A DNA stretch of 41,356 nucleotides. It comes from a virus. Each line of letters opens with the position of its first letter. Position 1 is the stretch's first letter. The stretch spans positions 1 through 41,356 of IMG/VR virus record IMGVR_UViG_3300045988_077302, one strand, 5' to 3'. Shown piece by piece: positions 5,938 to 20,409 of this stretch. Below the pieces are notes generated by a model that saw only the letters and a program-made list of their open reading frames with translations, ran no database searches and was not told the DNA's origin. A program made the position numbers and the translations under genes.

Positions 5938-8138
5938 TGCAGGCGGTAAGCAGAGCCTATAAAGAGACACAGACAAAGCAGACCAGAGATCAGATGTACA
6001 TGGACGTCACCATCGGTGTTATCAACCAGGCAGCACAGAATAACTCTTCCGTGGATCCGGGCCAGTGTACGGAGTTCTCGAACACCCGGAAGCTGTTGGA
6101 CAACTACGACCCAGAGTACATGTACGCGACTTACGAACAAGACTTCTGGCGGGCCGATGGCTCCATGTTATTCCTGCCAGAGGACGGCAGCCCCTATTTC
6201 AACCAGGGGGCGGTCAGCCGGGAGCTGCTGGGGGCAATCCAGATCGATTACCACGGCGGCCCCTATGATATCCGGGGGCTGACTATAGATTTTTCGGATT
6301 ACTTCCCGGTTGACTTTGACGTTGTGTCAGACAATAAGACGCTGAATGTCATCGGAAACAGCAGCCGGGTATACATAACCGAGGAGATTTTCGAGGACGC
6401 TACGTACATCCGGATCGTCCCTCACGCCATGGTCAACGGCCAGGGGCGGCTCCGGATTTTTAAAATATCCATGGGTGTTGGTATCTACTTTAAGAGCAGA
6501 CAGATTACCTCGAGCAGTAAAAAGGAGTATCTGTCGCAGATTTCGGAGGAGCTGCCGACCATAGACCTATCCCTGACCGTGGAAAACAAGGGCCGGAAGT
6601 TTGACACCGAGAACCGCGACAGCGCCCTATATTATCTGGAGATCGGCCAGGAGGTCGAGATCAAGTACGGCGTGACACTGGCGGACGGCTCCATCGAGTG
6701 GCTGGACGGAGCGAAGCTATACCTGGACACGTGGAAGGCCGACGACGACCGCATGAGCTTCGGGGCGCGTGATGCAGTCGCAAACCTCAACGGGACGTAT
6801 TACCGGGGGAGGCATGGCACCACAACGTTGTATGATCTGGCCGTCGATGTGCTGGCAGATGCAGACGTGGATCCTCGGAATTACGTACTGGACGATTATC
6901 TGCGGCAGGTGCTGGTTGTCAACCCGATGCCCGCAGTCACCCATGCAGAAGCGTTACAGATCATAGCCAACGCAGGCCGCTGCATCTTATACCAGGACCG
7001 ACAGGGTATGATCCGGATTAAGGCAGCATTCGCCACGGTGATCTCTCCGGAGCGCATGACGGTGACGTCGGACGATGCCATGGAGTACTCGCACCTTAAA
7101 GAGGTTGTGCTGCCGAGCGTTAAGTACGATTATGCCAGGTATACACAGGATTACTGGGTGGCAGATGGCAGTATGTACTTTCTTCCAGAGGACGGAGGCA
7201 ACTACTTAAATACCGGTTTTATAAGCAAGCAGGTGGCCGGAGATGATGGGCGATTTACAGATCCTCCAAAGCTGTCAATCCGACTGGAAGCGGCCATGAA
7301 GTACTACGGCCTGTCTATGGAGTTTGGCGGCAATCACCCGGTCGAGATGGTGATACACACCTATAAGGCCGGTGCATTGCAGGAAAGCTATACGCAGGGG
7401 ATAACCGGCAACGAGATGGTAGTGGAACATGAGTTTCCGGAGTTCGATACCATAGTTTTTGAATTTACGCAGGCGCACTCCAACAACGATGTAATCGTCA
7501 ACTATGTTAAGTTTGGGGACGTGAGCGATTATGAACTTAACTATCACAACATGCGGAAACCGCCTACAGGTATCCAGGTCGATAGGTATAAGGATCTCCG
7601 GGTGCAGATGACCAACTACTATGAGGGCACTGATCGTAAGGAGCTGTTTAAGGACGTGGTGCAGGGCGGCGGCCGTTATGTGGCTACGATGCTTAATGCA
7701 AGCCACGGGTATGCAGTTAATATTGGATCTATTGTGGAGTCTACGGCCTATAAGGTGATCGTGGATCTAAGCAGTGTTACCGGCTCTGTGGAGTTGATAA
7801 TCACCGGCTGCGAATACCTCCAGACACCGTCTGACTATGTGCTGAGACTTAACCCGTCTGGACAGAGTAAGACCTGGACTAATCCTCTAATCAACGATGC
7901 GGCTCATGCGCAGCTGGTAGCGGAGTGGACTGGAAATTACCTGAACAACAATATCAACTATGAGATCAGCTACCGTGGGGATTTCCGGCTGGATCCTGGG
8001 GATATCGTATTCCTCCAGAACCAATATGTGGATAAGCTCCAAATCAACATCGGGGAGCATACGATCAATTACGACGGCGGAGCCGTATCCGGTACCGTGA
8101 AAGCAAGGAGGGCTGTTAATGGCGTGGGTAACACCTAA
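5937..8138 (+). CDS. Tail-associated / baseplate hub-like protein with an internally duplicated domain
   Basis: 733 aa with TGATG coupling. It occupies the Tal position, and two homologous segments were seen (see findings). Confidence 0.65.
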   Translation: MQAVSRAYKETQTKQTRDQMYMDVTIGVINQAAQNNSSVDPGQCTEFSNTRKLLDNYDPEYMYATYEQDFWRADGSMLFLPEDGSPYFNQGAVSRELLGAIQIDYHGGPYDIRGLTIDFSDYFPVDFDVVSDNKTLNVIGNSSRVYITEEIFEDATYIRIVPHAMVNGQGRLRIFKISMGVGIYFKSRQITSSSKKEYLSQISEELPTIDLSLTVENKGRKFDTENRDSALYYLEIGQEVEIKYGVTLADGSIEWLDGAKLYLDTWKADDDRMSFGARDAVANLNGTYYRGRHGTTTLYDLAVDVLADADVDPRNYVLDDYLRQVLVVNPMPAVTHAEALQIIANAGRCILYQDRQGMIRIKAAFATVISPERMTVTSDDAMEYSHLKEVVLPSVKYDYARYTQDYWVADGSMYFLPEDGGNYLNTGFISKQVAGDDGRFTDPPKLSIRLEAAMKYYGLSMEFGGNHPVEMVIHTYKAGALQESYTQGITGNEMVVEHEFPEFDTIVFEFTQAHSNNDVIVNYVKFGDVSDYELNYHNMRKPPTGIQVDRYKDLRVQMTNYYEGTDRKELFKDVVQGGGRYVATMLNASHGYAVNIGSIVESTAYKVIVDLSSVTGSVELIITGCEYLQTPSDYVLRLNPSGQSKTWTNPLINDAAHAQLVAEWTGNYLNNNINYEISYRGDFRLDPGDIVFLQNQYVDKLQINIGEHTINYDGGAVSGTVKARRAVNGVGNT

Positions 8139-14085: not shown

Positions 14086-14835
14086 ATGATACCTATTACG
14101 AAACAGATCAAACAGATTAATTGCTATGCAAGTCAGAATCACCCAAAGTACATTGTAATCCATGAGACTGACAATTTTAACCGTGGCGCCGGGGCTGCCG
14201 CTCATTCCAGGGCGCATAATAATTGCAATCTGGCTACATCGGTTCATTATTACGTTGATGATGTAGCAATCTACCAGACACTCAACCATACAGACGGAGC
14301 ATGGGCTGTCGGCAAGCAGTACGGCACGCCGCTGGTGGCTGGAGTCAATAACAACAACACGATCAATATCGAGATCTGCGTTAATCCGGACAGCAACTAC
14401 GACAAAGCGCGGCTTAACTGTGTAGACCTGGTACGGCACCTGATTCAGGAGACGGGGATCCCCGCCGATCGGGTGATCCGGCATTACGATGCAAAGCGTA
14501 AATGGTGTCCGCGTAAGATGATGGACAGCCCGGAGTTATGGACGGACTTCTGCCTGAGGATTCGCGGACAGGCGGACGAGGTGAAGAGCTTCGAGGACGG
14601 CACCGGGAACTGGCATTTTACGATTAATGGCGAGTTGCAGAAAAACCGCTGGGTGAAATATAAGAATAAGTGGTTCTACGTGGACGATTACGGGAACATG
14701 GTTACTGGATACACTGTGATTGGCGGCCTGGCCTATGTGCTTAACCCATCAAAGGCTGATATGGAGACATATGGGGCGCTGATGGTAACGAATAACCTTG
14801 CACAGGGCAATCTTGAGGTGCAGTGGGTGGAATAG
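14086..14835 (+). CDS. Endolysin: N-acetylmuramoyl-L-alanine amidase (Amidase_2/PGRP type) with C-terminal cell-wall-binding repeats
   Basis: 249 aa. Motifs seen are IVIHETD, NIEIC and VIRHYDAKRKWCP. The C-terminal repeat WVKYKNKWFYVDDYGNMVTG resembles CW_binding repeats. Confidence 0.9.
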   Translation: MIPITKQIKQINCYASQNHPKYIVIHETDNFNRGAGAAAHSRAHNNCNLATSVHYYVDDVAIYQTLNHTDGAWAVGKQYGTPLVAGVNNNNTINIEICVNPDSNYDKARLNCVDLVRHLIQETGIPADRVIRHYDAKRKWCPRKMMDSPELWTDFCLRIRGQADEVKSFEDGTGNWHFTINGELQKNRWVKYKNKWFYVDDYGNMVTGYTVIGGLAYVLNPSKADMETYGALMVTNNLAQGNLEVQWVE

Positions 14836-14913: not shown

Positions 14914-15612
14914 ATGAAACTAAGACTTGTTAAACAGGGAGACTTTTTAGGAACGAAGTGCGATTTTTATGTAAATGAAACCGGTGATATCTTTATGAGC
15001 AGAACCCAGATAGGATACGCCTTGAAGTATAAAAATCCGAGCAAAGGTATAGAAGACATACATAACAGACACCATGACCGACTTGACACCATGAGCGTAA
15101 AAGTTGACCCCCTCAGTTTGCAGGGGTCAAATCCACATTACAGGAATGGCGAAAGAGCCTATATGTATCCCGAAAAAGGAATATACGAAATCTGTAGGTA
15201 TTCCAGGCAAAAGGTTGCTGGGGATTTTTATGATTGGGTTTATGATGTTATTCAGTCCATCAAAAAGAACGGTTACTACATCGCTTCCGAGAAAGACGAG
15301 AAGTGGCTGGGAATCCGTCGTGAGACCAAAGAGGTACGCAAGGCCGAGACGGATCAGATCAAGTTATTCGTGGAGTATGCGAGGGCACAGGGCAGCCAGC
15401 ACGCAGACAGATATTATGTGTCGCTGACCAAGCTCATAAACCGCAGATTAGGCATAGAGAGCGGCGGGAGGGACAAGGCATACCAGAGGACGCTGATGCA
15501 CTTAAAATCACTGGAAACGGTGGTGGAGCTGCATCTGGCTACGCTGATGGAGGAGGGGCTGCCGTACAAGGAGATATATCAGGGCGTGAAAAAGTTTATC
15601 GAAGCGCTGTAG
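14914..15612 (+). CDS. Bro-N domain protein (antirepressor-like)
   Basis: 232 aa. The N-terminal half matches the Bro-N pattern (FMSRTQIGYALKY...EKGIYEICRYSRQKVAGDFYDWVYDVIQSIKKNGYY). Confidence 0.6.
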   Translation: MKLRLVKQGDFLGTKCDFYVNETGDIFMSRTQIGYALKYKNPSKGIEDIHNRHHDRLDTMSVKVDPLSLQGSNPHYRNGERAYMYPEKGIYEICRYSRQKVAGDFYDWVYDVIQSIKKNGYYIASEKDEKWLGIRRETKEVRKAETDQIKLFVEYARAQGSQHADRYYVSLTKLINRRLGIESGGRDKAYQRTLMHLKSLETVVELHLATLMEEGLPYKEIYQGVKKFIEAL

Positions 15613-15794
15613 GAATCTCACGGCAGAAAATTCCGCTGCCAGTTTGAGTGGTAAGAAAAGGGCGGTCCGCTTGGGCCGCCTGAAAACATGATCTGTATGT
15701 TATAAAATTTGTAATTGAAGCCATACTACTACTGTGCTTTGATATATAAATTGTAATCAGTATTTTATGCTTTACTGTAAAAGAGGGAAAATAG

Positions 15795-16148
15795 TTGAAA
15801 AGATATGATCCGATGATGGTGGGAAAAAGAATTAGGAGACAACGGATAATAATGGGATTGACCCAGGAAGAAGTGGCTGAGAAGATTGAACGGTCATATA
15901 AGTACTATCAAGATATCGAGCGAGGGACATGTGGAATGTCGATTAATACAATACTTAGTATTGCAGAATGTCTTCATATATCTATAGACTATTTAATCTT
16001 CGGAAATAATGAGAAAAATTTCCCCACCTTTAATGGTGAAGAAGAGCAACAAGCGCTTATAGATGCTTTGAGCAATTGTAGTATTCATAAGAAAAAATAT
16101 GCCTTAGAATTAATAAAATTATTTTTGAAGGCTTGTGGTGAACAATAA
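15795..16148 (+). CDS. XRE-family helix-turn-helix transcriptional regulator
   Basis: 117 aa with a TTG start after AGAGGGA (alternative ATG at 15813). The HTH reads LTQEEVAEKIERSYKYYQDIERG. The surrounding DNA is AT-rich. Confidence 0.8.
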   Translation: MKRYDPMMVGKRIRRQRIIMGLTQEEVAEKIERSYKYYQDIERGTCGMSINTILSIAECLHISIDYLIFGNNEKNFPTFNGEEEQQALIDALSNCSIHKKKYALELIKLFLKACGEQ

Positions 16149-16297
16149 CGGCGGCAGCGCCCCATGGCTCCGCCCTGCCTTCTCGGCATAATATAGGCGG
16201 TCTGTTTGGGACTCCTTACTTCTAAGGGGGCTTCACGACCGTCGATTTTTTTAACACACCTCTTGCCAGGAGATCACAGAAATGATATAATAAATTC

Positions 16298-16386
16298 GCT
16301 CGTATTATTTCATATATTTTTCTGGCGTATCAGAAGAGTATTCATGCAAAGCCGCTCAGTATCCCCATACACTGGGCGGTTTTTGT
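16298..16386 (+). ncRNA. Candidate small RNA 1 (promoter 16263..16291, terminator 16351..16386)
   Basis: Promoter is TTGCCA, a 17-nt spacer, then TATAAT with a TG extension (tgatataat). The terminator stem CCGCTCAG/CTGGGCGG is followed by TTTTT. There is no credible ORF between them. Confidence 0.4.
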
Positions 16387-16445
16387 GCGTAATTCATGTA
16401 TAGGTGACCAGTAGTAGGCTACATCTAAAATGATATATACGCGCT

Positions 16446-16508
16446 ATAATAATTGCGTTTTGCTTTTCTAACTTGCGGCTTAGCTATATTGGCAGGCCGC
16501 ATTTTTTG
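16446..16508 (+). ncRNA. Candidate small RNA 2 (extended -10 at 16431..16439, terminator 16474..16508)
   Basis: There is a TGATATATA extended -10 but the -35 is poor. The terminator stem TGCGGC/GCCGCA is followed by TTTTTT. Confidence 0.3.
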
Positions 16509-16586
16509 TATACATAACTGCATAAATTTAGCAGAGTAGAGTAAAAAAGCGTTGATTTATTGAGAAAAAAGTGATATGATTTTCCC

Positions 16587-16646
16587 AGCAGCTCTTCTTT
16601 GCGGTCGTCTAGGTATATTTCCCCCATATACCCGGGCGACTTTTAT
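16587..16646 (+). ncRNA. Candidate small RNA 3 (promoter 16552..16580, terminator 16603..16646)
   Basis: Promoter is TTGATT, a 17-nt spacer, then TATGAT with a TG extension. A roughly 16-bp GU-rich stem (core GTATAT/ATATAC) is followed by TTTTAT. Confidence 0.4.
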
Positions 16647-16663
16647 ATGCGTATCTTACTACG

Positions 16664-16846
16664 TTACATCAACCGGCATTTGGTATCTGGCGATCGCTGA
16701 GTTAAAAACCACATAGCTGATATATCCACATCGATTACCATTTTCGCCATCTCGCGAGTCTCCTGGTATTTTGCATTTTTAGCCATCTGGGCATGGCGCT
16801 GGTAGGTCTCAATTATCTCAAAAAATAATTCATCTGTTCGGTTCAT
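16664..16846 (-). CDS. Hypothetical 60-aa protein downstream of the integrase
   Basis: Strong RBS AAGGAGAA upstream of the ATG. The product is hydrophilic and no motif was recognised. Confidence 0.6.
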   Translation of the reverse strand: MNRTDELFFEIIETYQRHAQMAKNAKYQETREMAKMVIDVDISAMWFLTQRSPDTKCRLM

Positions 16847-16929
16847 CTTTTCTCCTTCTTTCCCTTATGATTATATTTTACCGGTAATTAATATTAACCG
16901 ACCGGAAACTTAACTTAACGGTAAAACAA

Positions 16930-18321
16930 TTACAAAAAGATAATTTGATATTTCCGGTTCCGCCCAATACTCTTTGATACACGGATTTCCTTAATAATTG
17001 ACCGCCAGAAGGCCCTCTTTTCCTCATTGTTTAAATTATTATAGATGATCTCAAAATTGCAGTCCAGAACTTGCTTAAGCGGTTTTAGATTTTTTATCGG
17101 TTGTTCCATGTCTGGAAGGGCAGCAAGCTGTTCCTCATACTCCGCGCGGTCTTTTTTATATTCTTCCAGATTGATCACTTCATTCAGGTACAAATCCTTC
17201 AAACGGTCTAGTTTTCTGCGGATCTTATTCTTTTTTGCGCGATTATCAATTCTCTTGGCTTCCCCTGTCTCAAAATCTACCAGATAGCCGCTTAACTCTT
17301 CCCGGATGTGTTCTAATAAATATTCTTCAATCCTCATTTCTCGAATCTCACCGCCGTTGCTGCATTTTTTGTATGCACGGTACTGCAGGCATTCATAAGC
17401 AGGATATTTGTAGCGGTAGACTTTTCCGCTGGTCCTGCGGCTCACGACGTTAATGTGGCAGCCGCTCATTTTATGGCCGCACTCGTCACAAATCAGGATT
17501 CCTGAGAATATGTAGGGGTATTTTTGGCTGGAGCGTATCGTGCTGTTGTTGTCAAGAACACGTTGAATGTCCTGATACATCTCGTCAGAAATCAGGCGCG
17601 GACAGTAATTTTCGTTGCCGCGATAACGGCCGGTGTATTTCTCGTTTCGCAGGATACTGTTTTTAAGGTTCTGGATACTCATATTTATTCCGTGGTTTTC
17701 CCGCATGTAGTTTACGGTTTTGGCAAGCCCCTGTTCCCGATGGAAGTACTGAATACTATCCAACATCGCGGGTGCCTCGTCAGAAAAAACTAAATGCTTA
17801 TTTTGAATCATGTAGCCGCGCGGCACCTTTCCGGTGATAACCTCTCCATGAACTACCTTGTTGCGAAAGACATCGGCAACGCGCAGGCCGCCGTTCTGAG
17901 CTTCCAGCTCCGCCCATGTCATAGACTGAGCTACGAAGGCACGGCCGTAAGGGGTGGAAGTGTCAAAGTAGGGTTGGTCAATGGCTGTCCATGCAACATT
18001 GTACTTATCCAATATGACCTGAATATTGAGATAATGGCGCAGGCTCCTGAACCAGCGGTCTAATTTTGTGAATATGATGAGATCAACCAGGCCGGCTTTT
18101 ACATTCCCGATCAGGCGGGTAAAATCATCACGATCCAGCTTCTGGCCGGAGACGCCGTCGTCGATATAAGTGTCCTGGAGGACCATGTTCTGATGATCAT
18201 CAATATATTTAATTCCGCGTTCCTTCTGATCGCGAATGGAATCGCCGCGTTCAGCCTGTTCGTCTGAGGATACACGGATGTAGAGCGCTACACGCAGAAG
18301 GGCGGTCTGGGGCTTTGTCAT
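16930..18321 (-). CDS. int: Large serine recombinase (phage integrase)
   Basis: 463 aa from ATG 18321 (RBS AAGGAGAT). It has the resolvase catalytic motif VALYIRVSSDEQ, a Cys-rich zinc ribbon CDECGHKMSGC...YECLQY...C, and a C-terminal coiled coil. The track extension to 18522 has no RBS. Confidence 0.9.
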   Translation of the reverse strand: MTKPQTALLRVALYIRVSSDEQAERGDSIRDQKERGIKYIDDHQNMVLQDTYIDDGVSGQKLDRDDFTRLIGNVKAGLVDLIIFTKLDRWFRSLRHYLNIQVILDKYNVAWTAIDQPYFDTSTPYGRAFVAQSMTWAELEAQNGGLRVADVFRNKVVHGEVITGKVPRGYMIQNKHLVFSDEAPAMLDSIQYFHREQGLAKTVNYMRENHGINMSIQNLKNSILRNEKYTGRYRGNENYCPRLISDEMYQDIQRVLDNNSTIRSSQKYPYIFSGILICDECGHKMSGCHINVVSRRTSGKVYRYKYPAYECLQYRAYKKCSNGGEIREMRIEEYLLEHIREELSGYLVDFETGEAKRIDNRAKKNKIRRKLDRLKDLYLNEVINLEEYKKDRAEYEEQLAALPDMEQPIKNLKPLKQVLDCNFEIIYNNLNNEEKRAFWRSIIKEIRVSKSIGRNRKYQIIFL

Positions 18322-18496: not shown

Positions 18497-19252
18497 TTAC
18501 TTATTATGGGTGATAACGTCAAATGCTGATAATATTTGGTGTGCCAAATTAAAGGCCGTTTGATACTCTTTGCTATTAGTCTTAGTGGGTTTCGTAATTA
18601 AAGGAATCATAATACAAGGAGAACCGAAATTATTAACGGTTACTTTTATGTAAAGTGATTCTACTTTTTTCTTCTGTACCCTTTTTCCGGTAATACCTCC
18701 AGCAACAGCACCAAAACCGCCAAATATAGCACCGCCGATTAATGCCTGGCCGACACCACCGCTTGTAACAAGGCTATCATCTTCTAAAAGATCATAATTA
18801 AGCAAGTCATTAAATTCCAGCCATTCTTTATTTCCGACTTTTTGCTTGTTTCCGCCAATAAGTTTTTCAGCAGCTACAGACATTCCCAATGTACTAACTG
18901 CCATAAGTCCTTTAAACATTGATTTTCCGGCGCCATCTTTTTTACCATTAATAGGAACAGCACCGTTTATACGAAACATCTTATGCGGTTCGTCTATTTG
19001 AACCGGTCCTACTTGACGAGTGACTTTGATAGCGTTTTTATTGTTTTCAGCGACAGTCTGAACTCCAGTTTGTACTGCAGACCATACCTTGTTTACAACG
19101 GATTCATCAGTTTGGGCATCAGATACAATAGGAGTGGCTGTATTTATTTCTTCATTAGACAGCATATCGCTGGTAGGACAGCCACAATTGGGACACGCAG
19201 CTGCTTTGTCTGAGAATTCTTTTCCACACTCTGTGCATTTAATAAGTGCCAT
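18497..19252 (-). CDS. Zinc-ribbon protein with a glycine-zipper hydrophobic segment
   Basis: 251 aa. The N-terminus is CTECGKEF...CPNCGC and it contains GGVGQALIGGAIFGGFGAVAGGITG. RBS is GGGAGGAA. Confidence 0.7.
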   Translation of the reverse strand: MALIKCTECGKEFSDKAAACPNCGCPTSDMLSNEEINTATPIVSDAQTDESVVNKVWSAVQTGVQTVAENNKNAIKVTRQVGPVQIDEPHKMFRINGAVPINGKKDGAGKSMFKGLMAVSTLGMSVAAEKLIGGNKQKVGNKEWLEFNDLLNYDLLEDDSLVTSGGVGQALIGGAIFGGFGAVAGGITGKRVQKKKVESLYIKVTVNNFGSPCIMIPLITKPTKTNSKEYQTAFNLAHQILSAFDVITHNK

Positions 19253-20395: not shown

Positions 20396-20409
20396 CGCGC
20401 AATTGCGCG
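20396..20409. promoter_or_regulatory. Operator: perfect 14-bp palindrome CGCGCAATTGCGCG
   Basis: Read directly. Related sites are GCGCAATTGC at 20461..20470 and TATACGCGCAAT at 20320..20331. Confidence 0.6.

Follow-up and report, generated by a model that had tools for sequence, protein, structure and literature searches.

Three candidate small-RNA genes of moron type near the attachment site of a temperate Hungatella phage

The units in the gap between the XRE gene and ORF60

The stretch of DNA analysed here (the window), 41,356 nucleotides of IMG/VR virus record IMGVR_UViG_3300045988_077302, is the genome of a temperate phage in its non-integrated form, with an intact phage attachment site (attP); the host genus is Hungatella. 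Between an XRE-type helix-turn-helix (HTH) gene (15795-16148, + strand) and ORF60, a gene for 60 amino acids on the opposite strand (16664-16846, - strand), lies a gap of 515 bp (16149-16663), which holds three compact units on the + strand. On balance, a comparison of the sequences suggests that these units are probably autonomous, moron-like small-RNA genes in the accessory arm of the phage next to its attachment site.

The original prediction had described the gap as devoid of credible open reading frames (ORFs) and as occupied by three + strand combinations of promoter, hairpin and U-tract. All of these elements were found at the positions given for them. The longest ORF in the gap, of 65 amino acids (16206-16403), is broken among the relatives, by an ATG TAA in locus L001 and by insertions and deletions (indels) that are not multiples of three. 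Because the ORFs are not conserved in the relatives, the units are considered to be non-coding. The relatives were collected by anchoring on ORF60, which yielded 19 loci from IMG/VR, 32 loci from gut metagenomes and three prophages of Hungatella hathewayi DSM 13479. On the basis of BLAST and alignment over all loci, 15 distinct variants could be recognized for unit 1, and 12 each for units 2 and 3, besides a further divergent unit 3 in locus L065. Folding of the whole gap gave a z of -4.68 on the + strand vs. -1.43 on the - strand.

The promoter of unit 1 (16263-16291, + strand) consists of TTGCCA (16263-16268), a 17-nt spacer, a TG at 16283-16284 and TATAAT (16286-16291). With the TG it scores 11/12 and is the top promoter-like site in the 3 kb that were scanned (15000-18000), in which such sites are abundant (13 found vs. 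7.1 expected). Both hexamers and the TG are invariant in the 15 variants, and 8 of 14 spacer columns vary. The predicted RNA of ~89 nt (16298-16386, + strand, counted from a putative start) would comprise a 5' tail, a first hairpin (16314-16341) and a terminator hairpin (16346-16386). The core stem of the latter pairs 16351-16360 with 16371-16380 around a AUCCCCAUAC loop and is joined to a run of five U residues (16380-16384); the fold reaches -28.2 kcal/mol with a z of -4.7 on the + strand, vs. a z of -2.0 for the reverse complement. Across the variants, the pairs of this stem have 0-2 broken cells each. One pair occurs as U.G in 8 sequences, as U-A in 3 and as C-G in 1, and the fold into two hairpins is retained in 4 variants despite several indels. 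The unit is followed by a conserved spacer (16391-16437, + strand; alignment to L001 and L002), whose 3' end is a deletion junction formed by the repeat AAAATGATAT.

This junction bears on unit 2. In the aligned relatives the promoter of unit 2 reads TTTACA-17-TATAAT or TATAGT. In the window (16422-16450, + strand) the conserved -10 TATAAT is found at 16445-16450, and the -35 position (16422-16427) is taken by the degenerate sequence CATCTA. The window and the lineage of L008 and L030 lack 65-250 bp that are present elsewhere between two AAAATGATAT repeats, and the loss of the -35 in the window is therefore ascribed to a deletion between these repeats, by which CATCTA came into its place. The repeat at 16427-16437 marks the deletion, L001 having ~250 bp and L002 ~65 bp more than the window at this place. 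The additional DNA of the relatives contains another promoter-like site, TGTGATACAAT, and in L001, L018, L025 and L065 it also includes a hairpin of the - strand whose tail is U-rich (AGCCCCGGAGCAATCTGGGGCT). An extended -10, TGATATATA, had been proposed at 16431-16439; the sequence is present there and may function as such in this window, yet conservation is seen for the -10 at 16445-16450 and not for this sequence. The predicted RNA of ~50-57 nt (16457-16507, + strand) would consist of a 5' tail, a terminator hairpin (16474-16501) and six U residues (16502-16507). The tail, UUUUGCUUUUCUAAYUU, is invariant except for one C/U position, whereas the adjoining leader is highly variable. The terminator folds with -16.9 kcal/mol and a z of -2.4 on the + strand (reverse complement: z -1.2).

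Unit 2 had also been thought to carry the two halves of a switch operator, and the units to be controlled by the phage repressor. Neither idea survived the comparison with the relatives. The presumed halves lie in the variable spacer and leader, where CGCGC is changed to GCGTGC and TATGTGA, and AATTGCG to AATTACG and ACGCTCG. The operator itself, CGCGCAATTGCGCG, is a perfect palindrome of 14 bp with a single site in the window, at 20396-20409 beside the HTH repressor gene; no second copy with up to 2 mismatches was found in the whole window. The spacers of all three promoters vary freely. Since no conserved operator overlaps the promoters, transcription of the units would be constitutive and include the lysogenic state.

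The promoter of unit 3 (16552-16580, + strand) is TTGATT, a 17-nt spacer, TG and TATGAT, and it scores 9/12. Its -35, TG and -10 are conserved, whereas the spacer differs between classes of relatives both in sequence and in length (16 or 17 nt). The predicted RNA of ~60 nt (16587-16645, + strand) would begin with a CU-rich 5' tail, followed by a terminator hairpin (16604-16640) whose 15-bp stem closes a UUCCCCC loop, and by four U residues (16641-16644); the terminator folds with -20.2 kcal/mol and a z of -3.3 on the + strand, and the reverse complement with a z of -1.4. Three types of tail exist, CAGCUCUUCUUUGCGG (type A), CAACCCUUCUCU(AU/UA)GG and CAACUCUUCUUACGG, and these recombine with three types of stem and loop. 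When the divergent unit 3 of L065 is included, both partners have changed in two pairs of the stem (U-A to C-G in one, A-U to U-A in the other), and three pair types are seen at a third position. In this alignment 95% of the cells pair, vs. 27-46% with the partner slid, and the covariation score exceeds that of 499 of 500 shuffles. A search with a covariance model for additional, diverged copies of unit 3 found none, leaving one copy per phage.

General searches did not connect the units to known elements. A simple terminator scan called none of the three hairpins, presumably because they fall outside its rules: the loop of unit 1 has 10 nt, units 2 and 3 have an internal mismatch, and only four U residues follow unit 3. 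Rfam gave no match in the window at the gathering thresholds, and thus no family to which the units belong; at permissive thresholds the best scores, all sub-threshold, were those of trpB (20.5 of 59 bits) and c4-2 (17.6 of 41 bits). Scans for tRNA and tmRNA genes found none in the window, and blastn against the GenBank phages returned no relative of the 1.4-kb region. The idea of an RNA anti-CRISPR or solitary repeat was set aside, as the region has no repeat structure.

Conservation and modular exchange among the relatives

Taking the three alignments together, 4 of the 42 columns that make up the -35, TG and -10 elements are variable, vs. 22 of 42 in the spacers (Fisher p=3.6e-5); among the first 12 transcribed positions 20 of 37 columns vary. 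Judged by these alignments, the promoters are under selection, and the conservation of the units goes beyond chance, though promoter-like sites are by themselves frequent.

The stems tell a similar story for the strand. Standard pairs on the + strand account for 178 of 180 cells in the terminator helix of unit 1, 129 of 129 in that of unit 2 and 129 of 130 in that of unit 3, whereas read on the - strand 149, 102 and 107 cells are paired (~79-83%). The strands differ by the G.U cells, of which the + strand has 22-31 in each helix, and nearly all of the variation in the stems is a change from G.U to a Watson-Crick pair. The G.U-containing stems had been predicted to fold as + strand RNA, and this is borne out: the reverse complements fold worse, and pairing is better kept on the + strand. 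The hairpins thus appear to be constrained as + strand RNA; the support for this from the alignments is real but thin.

Conservation extends to parts of the units that would be unpaired. The 5' tail of unit 2 is near-invariant, the tails of unit 3 are CU-rich in all three types, and the loops of the hairpins of unit 1 and unit 3 display CCCCAU, as does the loop of a GC-rich hairpin directly after the XRE gene. On the + strand of the 41-kb window CCCCAT occurs only five times, and three of these occurrences lie inside hairpin loops of the gap.

The units are present in the relatives in different combinations. Only unit 1 is found in L027 and L061, units 1 and 3 in L018, and units 2 and 3 in L019, L023, L044, L052 and others; all three units are present in the window, L001, L002, L005, L008/L030, L012, L025 and L065. 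They are also complete in the type strain H. hathewayi DSM 13479, at ~2,184,644-2,185,004 of NZ_CP102274.1. About half of the ORF60-anchored loci contain no unit, and L029 has a gene for a Cys-rich protein of 76 amino acids at that place. The DNA flanking the units is unrelated among the relatives: in one class the homology with the window begins at the -35 of unit 1 and the DNA upstream is unrelated. The spacers between the units have been swapped wholesale between classes. The units had been called compact promoter-to-terminator units, and in the relatives each of them indeed behaves as an independent module of promoter and terminator. The anatomy of the units, their strand, their conservation and their modular exchange are hereby established.

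The same arm accommodates other non-coding elements. L030 (~6700-6800) and L019 (~300-420) contain another conserved non-coding module, with the hairpin CCAGACACTGTAAAGAATGTCTGG, which is lacking in the window; its position differs between phages, as it either precedes unit 1 or separates unit 3 from ORF60. In L030 a DUF3800-I RNA (RF02969) was identified at 6831-6939, on the + strand of the locus and opposite to the units, with 91 bits vs. a threshold of 44. There, in the DSM 13479 prophage, it precedes unit 1 within this non-coding arm; the window lacks it. The presence of a DUF3800-I RNA in the arm of L030 fits the view that the arm is a habitual home of non-coding RNA genes.

The attachment site and the neighbouring genes

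The region of the units had been considered the most likely location of attP. Alignment to integrated copies places attP elsewhere, at ~16876-16926, some 230-260 bp to the right of the units. Integrated prophages of H. hathewayi DSM 13479 and of gut metagenomes, among them L029 (DSM 13479), L041 and L043, match the window as far as the end of TTAACCGACCGGAAACT at 16910 and continue in host feoB, whereas the window runs past 16910 into the integrase gene; the integrated copies sit in the 5' part of feoB. The break at 16910 falls inside a 51-bp imperfect inverted repeat (16876-16926), with a shared core GGAAACT at 16904-16910, and it is for this reason that the repeat is taken to be attP. No such break was found within 16263-16648. 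The units are therefore accessory DNA, located ~230-640 bp inside the prophage end. For a second type of serine integrase, that of L008, the junction lies at the equivalent place, and the integrated form of that phage, L030, sits in a cotJC/manganese-catalase-like gene. The corrected attP and the insertion sites in feoB and the cotJC-like gene matter for the annotation and engineering of these prophages.

The integrase of the window is a large serine recombinase encoded on the - strand (16930-18321/18522). Its longest ORF starts with a TTG at 18522 and would encode 530 amino acids, but it overlaps the upstream gene, and the resolvase domain begins only at residue 78. Translation more likely starts at the ATG at 18321 (MTKPQTALLRVALYIRVSSDEQ), which would make the protein ~463 amino acids long. 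Beyond the integrase, an M78 peptidase and the HTH repressor are encoded, likewise on the - strand.

ORF60 is convergent with unit 3; it usually adjoins the units and is not part of them. The family is restricted to Hungatella, and neither Pfam, PHROGs and PADLOC nor AlphaFold2 with Foldseek provided an assignment, the predicted structure being a generic charged hairpin of two helices. In some records ORF60 is labelled "GNAT family acetyltransferase", without a Pfam match, and in several relatives its stop codon lies four residues earlier. A promoter-like site for the gene, TTAATA-16-TATAAT (16870-16897, - strand), overlaps one arm of attP, and its -10 is conserved in the relatives.

To the left of the gap, the tail genes, an amidase gene (14086-14835), a Bro-N/antirepressor-like gene (14914-15612) and the XRE gene are all encoded on the + strand. 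Directly after the XRE stop codon lies the GC-rich hairpin mentioned above (16150-16174, + strand), which has a GCCCCAUG loop containing the CCCCAU and lacks a U-tract. In phages without the three units this hairpin is found directly after the ORF60 stop codon, and it seems to be a travelling junction element. It is followed by T0, a terminator of the XRE/late transcription unit that the original prediction had missed (hairpin 16196-16243 and seven U residues at 16246-16252, + strand), which folds with -20.7 kcal/mol and a z of -2.9 on the + strand vs. -12.4 kcal/mol and a z of -2.0 on the - strand. The first 21 nt of T0 (16196-16216) are a direct repeat, 81% identical, of the terminator hairpin sequence at 15661-15681. 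It appears that the XRE gene is itself an inserted moron, bracketed by a duplication of these 21 nt. The relatives that lack the XRE gene (L025, L065 and L027) have a single copy of the repeat hairpin. The motif CAGTAGTAG (15726-15735 and 16408-16417) was considered as an operator for the XRE protein and rejected as not significant, since 8 of 100 shuffles were equally good.

What the units may be

Morons are independent modules of promoter, cargo and terminator that are carried by temperate phages (Juhala et al. 2000, reviewed in PMC3594210). The units agree with this description in three respects. They have a promoter of their own, consensus-like and with conserved hexamers and TG, though the -35 of unit 2 has been lost in the window; they have a factor-independent terminator of their own, with a stable + strand hairpin and four to six U residues, conserved with G.U and compensatory changes; and they are present or absent among related phages (unit 1 alone, units 1 and 3, units 2 and 3, all three, or none), in an accessory arm beside the attachment site. 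The neighbouring cassettes, i.e. the XRE gene and the gene of the Cys-rich protein in L029, behave alike. The units differ from morons in their cargo, which is a non-coding sequence of 25-60 nt in place of a protein gene, and their expression in the lysogen is a prediction.

The small-RNA reading of the units, which had already been proposed, is also the best one after the present analysis, and conservation, strand-constrained stems and modularity argue for it; of the original prediction, repressor control and the position of attP had to be given up. Each unit would then run from a housekeeping-type promoter (-35, TG and -10) over ~50-95 nt to its own intrinsic terminator, giving RNAs of ~89 nt (unit 1), ~50-57 nt (unit 2) and ~60 nt (unit 3). 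Such an RNA would combine an unpaired, pyrimidine-rich 5' tail with the terminator hairpin, which in units 1 and 3 would display the conserved C-rich loop YCCCCAU. We infer transcription, RNA ends, expression timing and targets from these features. The RNAs may work in trans by pairing with purine-rich stretches, and likely targets would be either the Shine-Dalgarno regions of mRNAs of the host or the phage, or small RNAs of the host.

Several observations weigh against this interpretation. The relatives all belong to one genus and are 75-100% identical, so that the evidence from the stems, which is mostly one-sided (G.U to Watson-Crick), is partly inherited; the double compensatory changes come from a single sequence, that of L065. 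Unit 2 is without a -35 in this window. No convincing target emerged from a duplex scan of the window, in which the antisense strands of the units themselves alone exceeded the background and the remainder was at chance level, or from a scan of ~12 kb of host flank, which gave only chance matches of 9-11 nt. The units match no Rfam family. Finally, terminators are to be expected anyway where a late operon ends facing a convergent gene.

Among known phage RNAs the units most closely resemble, by analogy, the prophage anti-sRNAs (sRNA: small RNA) of E. coli O157:H7, AsxR and AgvB, which are 51-60 nt long, occupy a moron insertion site, and are conserved in their 3' part but differ at the 5' end (Tree et al. 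2014, PMC4104026). Units 2 and 3 would likewise be very short (~50-60 nt), the units lie at a moron site, and unit 3 has a variable 5' end with its three types of tail. However, there is no similarity in sequence or in Rfam, the host of the units is a Firmicute, and they are att-proximal, whereas the E. coli RNAs lie downstream of PR'.

In the Firmicutes, small RNAs with C-rich motifs (the RsaE/RoxS type) display unpaired UCCC or CCCC in the loops of hairpins, where these motifs would be able to pair with Shine-Dalgarno sequences rich in G. A C-rich motif is also displayed in the hairpin loops of the units, where it is located in the terminator loop, without Rfam homology to those RNAs. Lambda OOP, P22 Sar and P1/P7 c4 are antisense RNAs of 60-80 nt with an intrinsic terminator, directed against defined phage genes (cII, ant). 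The units share with these the small size, the own promoter and the intrinsic terminator, but no gene lies opposite the units, and the c4-2 model stays far below its threshold (see above).

The most serious competitor, itself unlikely, is that the hairpins form a tandem array of terminators or insulators that keeps read-through from the late operon and the XRE gene from entering ORF60, attP and the integrase gene in the antisense direction, with the promoters being incidental AT-rich sequence and no functional RNA being made. Indeed, four + strand terminators are found within 500 bp where convergent transcription units meet, promoter-like hexamers are frequent in AT-rich DNA, as the excess in the promoter scan illustrates, and the window lacks the -35 of unit 2. 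However, incidental promoters are difficult to reconcile with -35, TG and -10 columns that are far more conserved than the spacers, or with modules that move as promoter plus terminator and have their boundaries at the -35. The conserved 5' tail of unit 2 and the conserved loop motif are not needed for termination, for which T0, with its seven U residues, would suffice alone.

Somewhat less likely again is that unit 3, possibly together with the other units, serves as an antisense or antitoxin-like regulator of ORF60, of the type I toxin-antitoxin or par kind, its RNA pairing with the ORF60 mRNA at the ribosome-binding site or in the 3' untranslated region. Type I loci of the Firmicutes include par Fst/RNAII, txpA/RatA and bsrG/SR4. 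In common with those, unit 3 is convergent with a small ORF at the prophage end, and the 3' regions of the two lie side by side or probably overlap; from the end of the unit 3 terminator to the stop codon of ORF60 the distance is 20 nt. Since the hairpin of unit 3 has no U-tract on the - strand, the ORF60 mRNA probably reads through it and would therefore be complementary to unit 3; an overlap of the two RNAs at their 3' ends is thus possible. The type B tail of L030, CCCUUCUCU, moreover complements AGAGAAGGG of the ORF60 ribosome-binding site exactly, over 9 nt. On the other hand, the linkage is loose: about half of the loci have ORF60 without unit 3, the two are ~190 nt apart in L019 and L023, and L065 has no adjoining ORF60. 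Nor do the tails and ribosome-binding sites co-vary, as in 19 combinations the matched pairs averaged -11.1 kcal/mol and the mismatched pairs -10.8, vs. -9.3 +/- 2.5 for shuffled sequences. A type I toxin would be a hydrophobic or membrane peptide with a strictly linked and complementary antitoxin RNA, whereas ORF60 is predicted to be a hydrophilic helical hairpin, is no membrane peptide, and matches nothing in PADLOC, Pfam or PHROG.

It is improbable that the units are decayed protein-coding morons, whose promoter and terminator have persisted by inertia after deletion of the ORF. Indels abound in this region, 65-250 bp that relatives have between units 1 and 2 are lacking in the window, and the XRE gene next to it is an inserted cassette with a duplicated terminator, all of which would suit decay. 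However, no ORF is present in any of the 12-15 variants of each unit, the short architecture is the conserved state, and the stems show compensatory and G.U-preserving changes. That the unit region is or contains the attachment site is hardly credible, despite its non-coding DNA, its inverted repeats and the nearby integrase gene, as the integrated prophages keep the region whole and diverge only at 16910, with an equivalent junction for the second type of integrase. A hairpin for retroregulation of the integrase mRNA, like lambda sib, was rejected, as the bias of the hairpins is towards the + strand and the integrase is read on the - strand.

The small-RNA reading can tentatively be taken one step further. 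The att-proximal arm could be a combinatorial array of ultra-short regulatory-RNA morons that share the YCCCCAU loop and have interchangeable pyrimidine-rich tails, swapped by recombination at the terminator hairpins, and that in the lysogen reprogram host translation or neutralize host small RNAs. We consider such an array a doubtful extension; if true, it would amount to RNA-only lysogenic conversion in an abundant gut commensal.

Phage small RNAs are well documented in the enterobacteria and a few pathogens, and to our knowledge are almost unexplored in the gut Clostridia. The units described here are good candidates of a familiar kind and involve no new principle. If they are expressed from the prophage, they would offer a compact and genetically tractable case of RNA-based lysogenic conversion in Hungatella, and the modular exchange of their 5' tails and hairpins would show how phages diversify their riboregulators.

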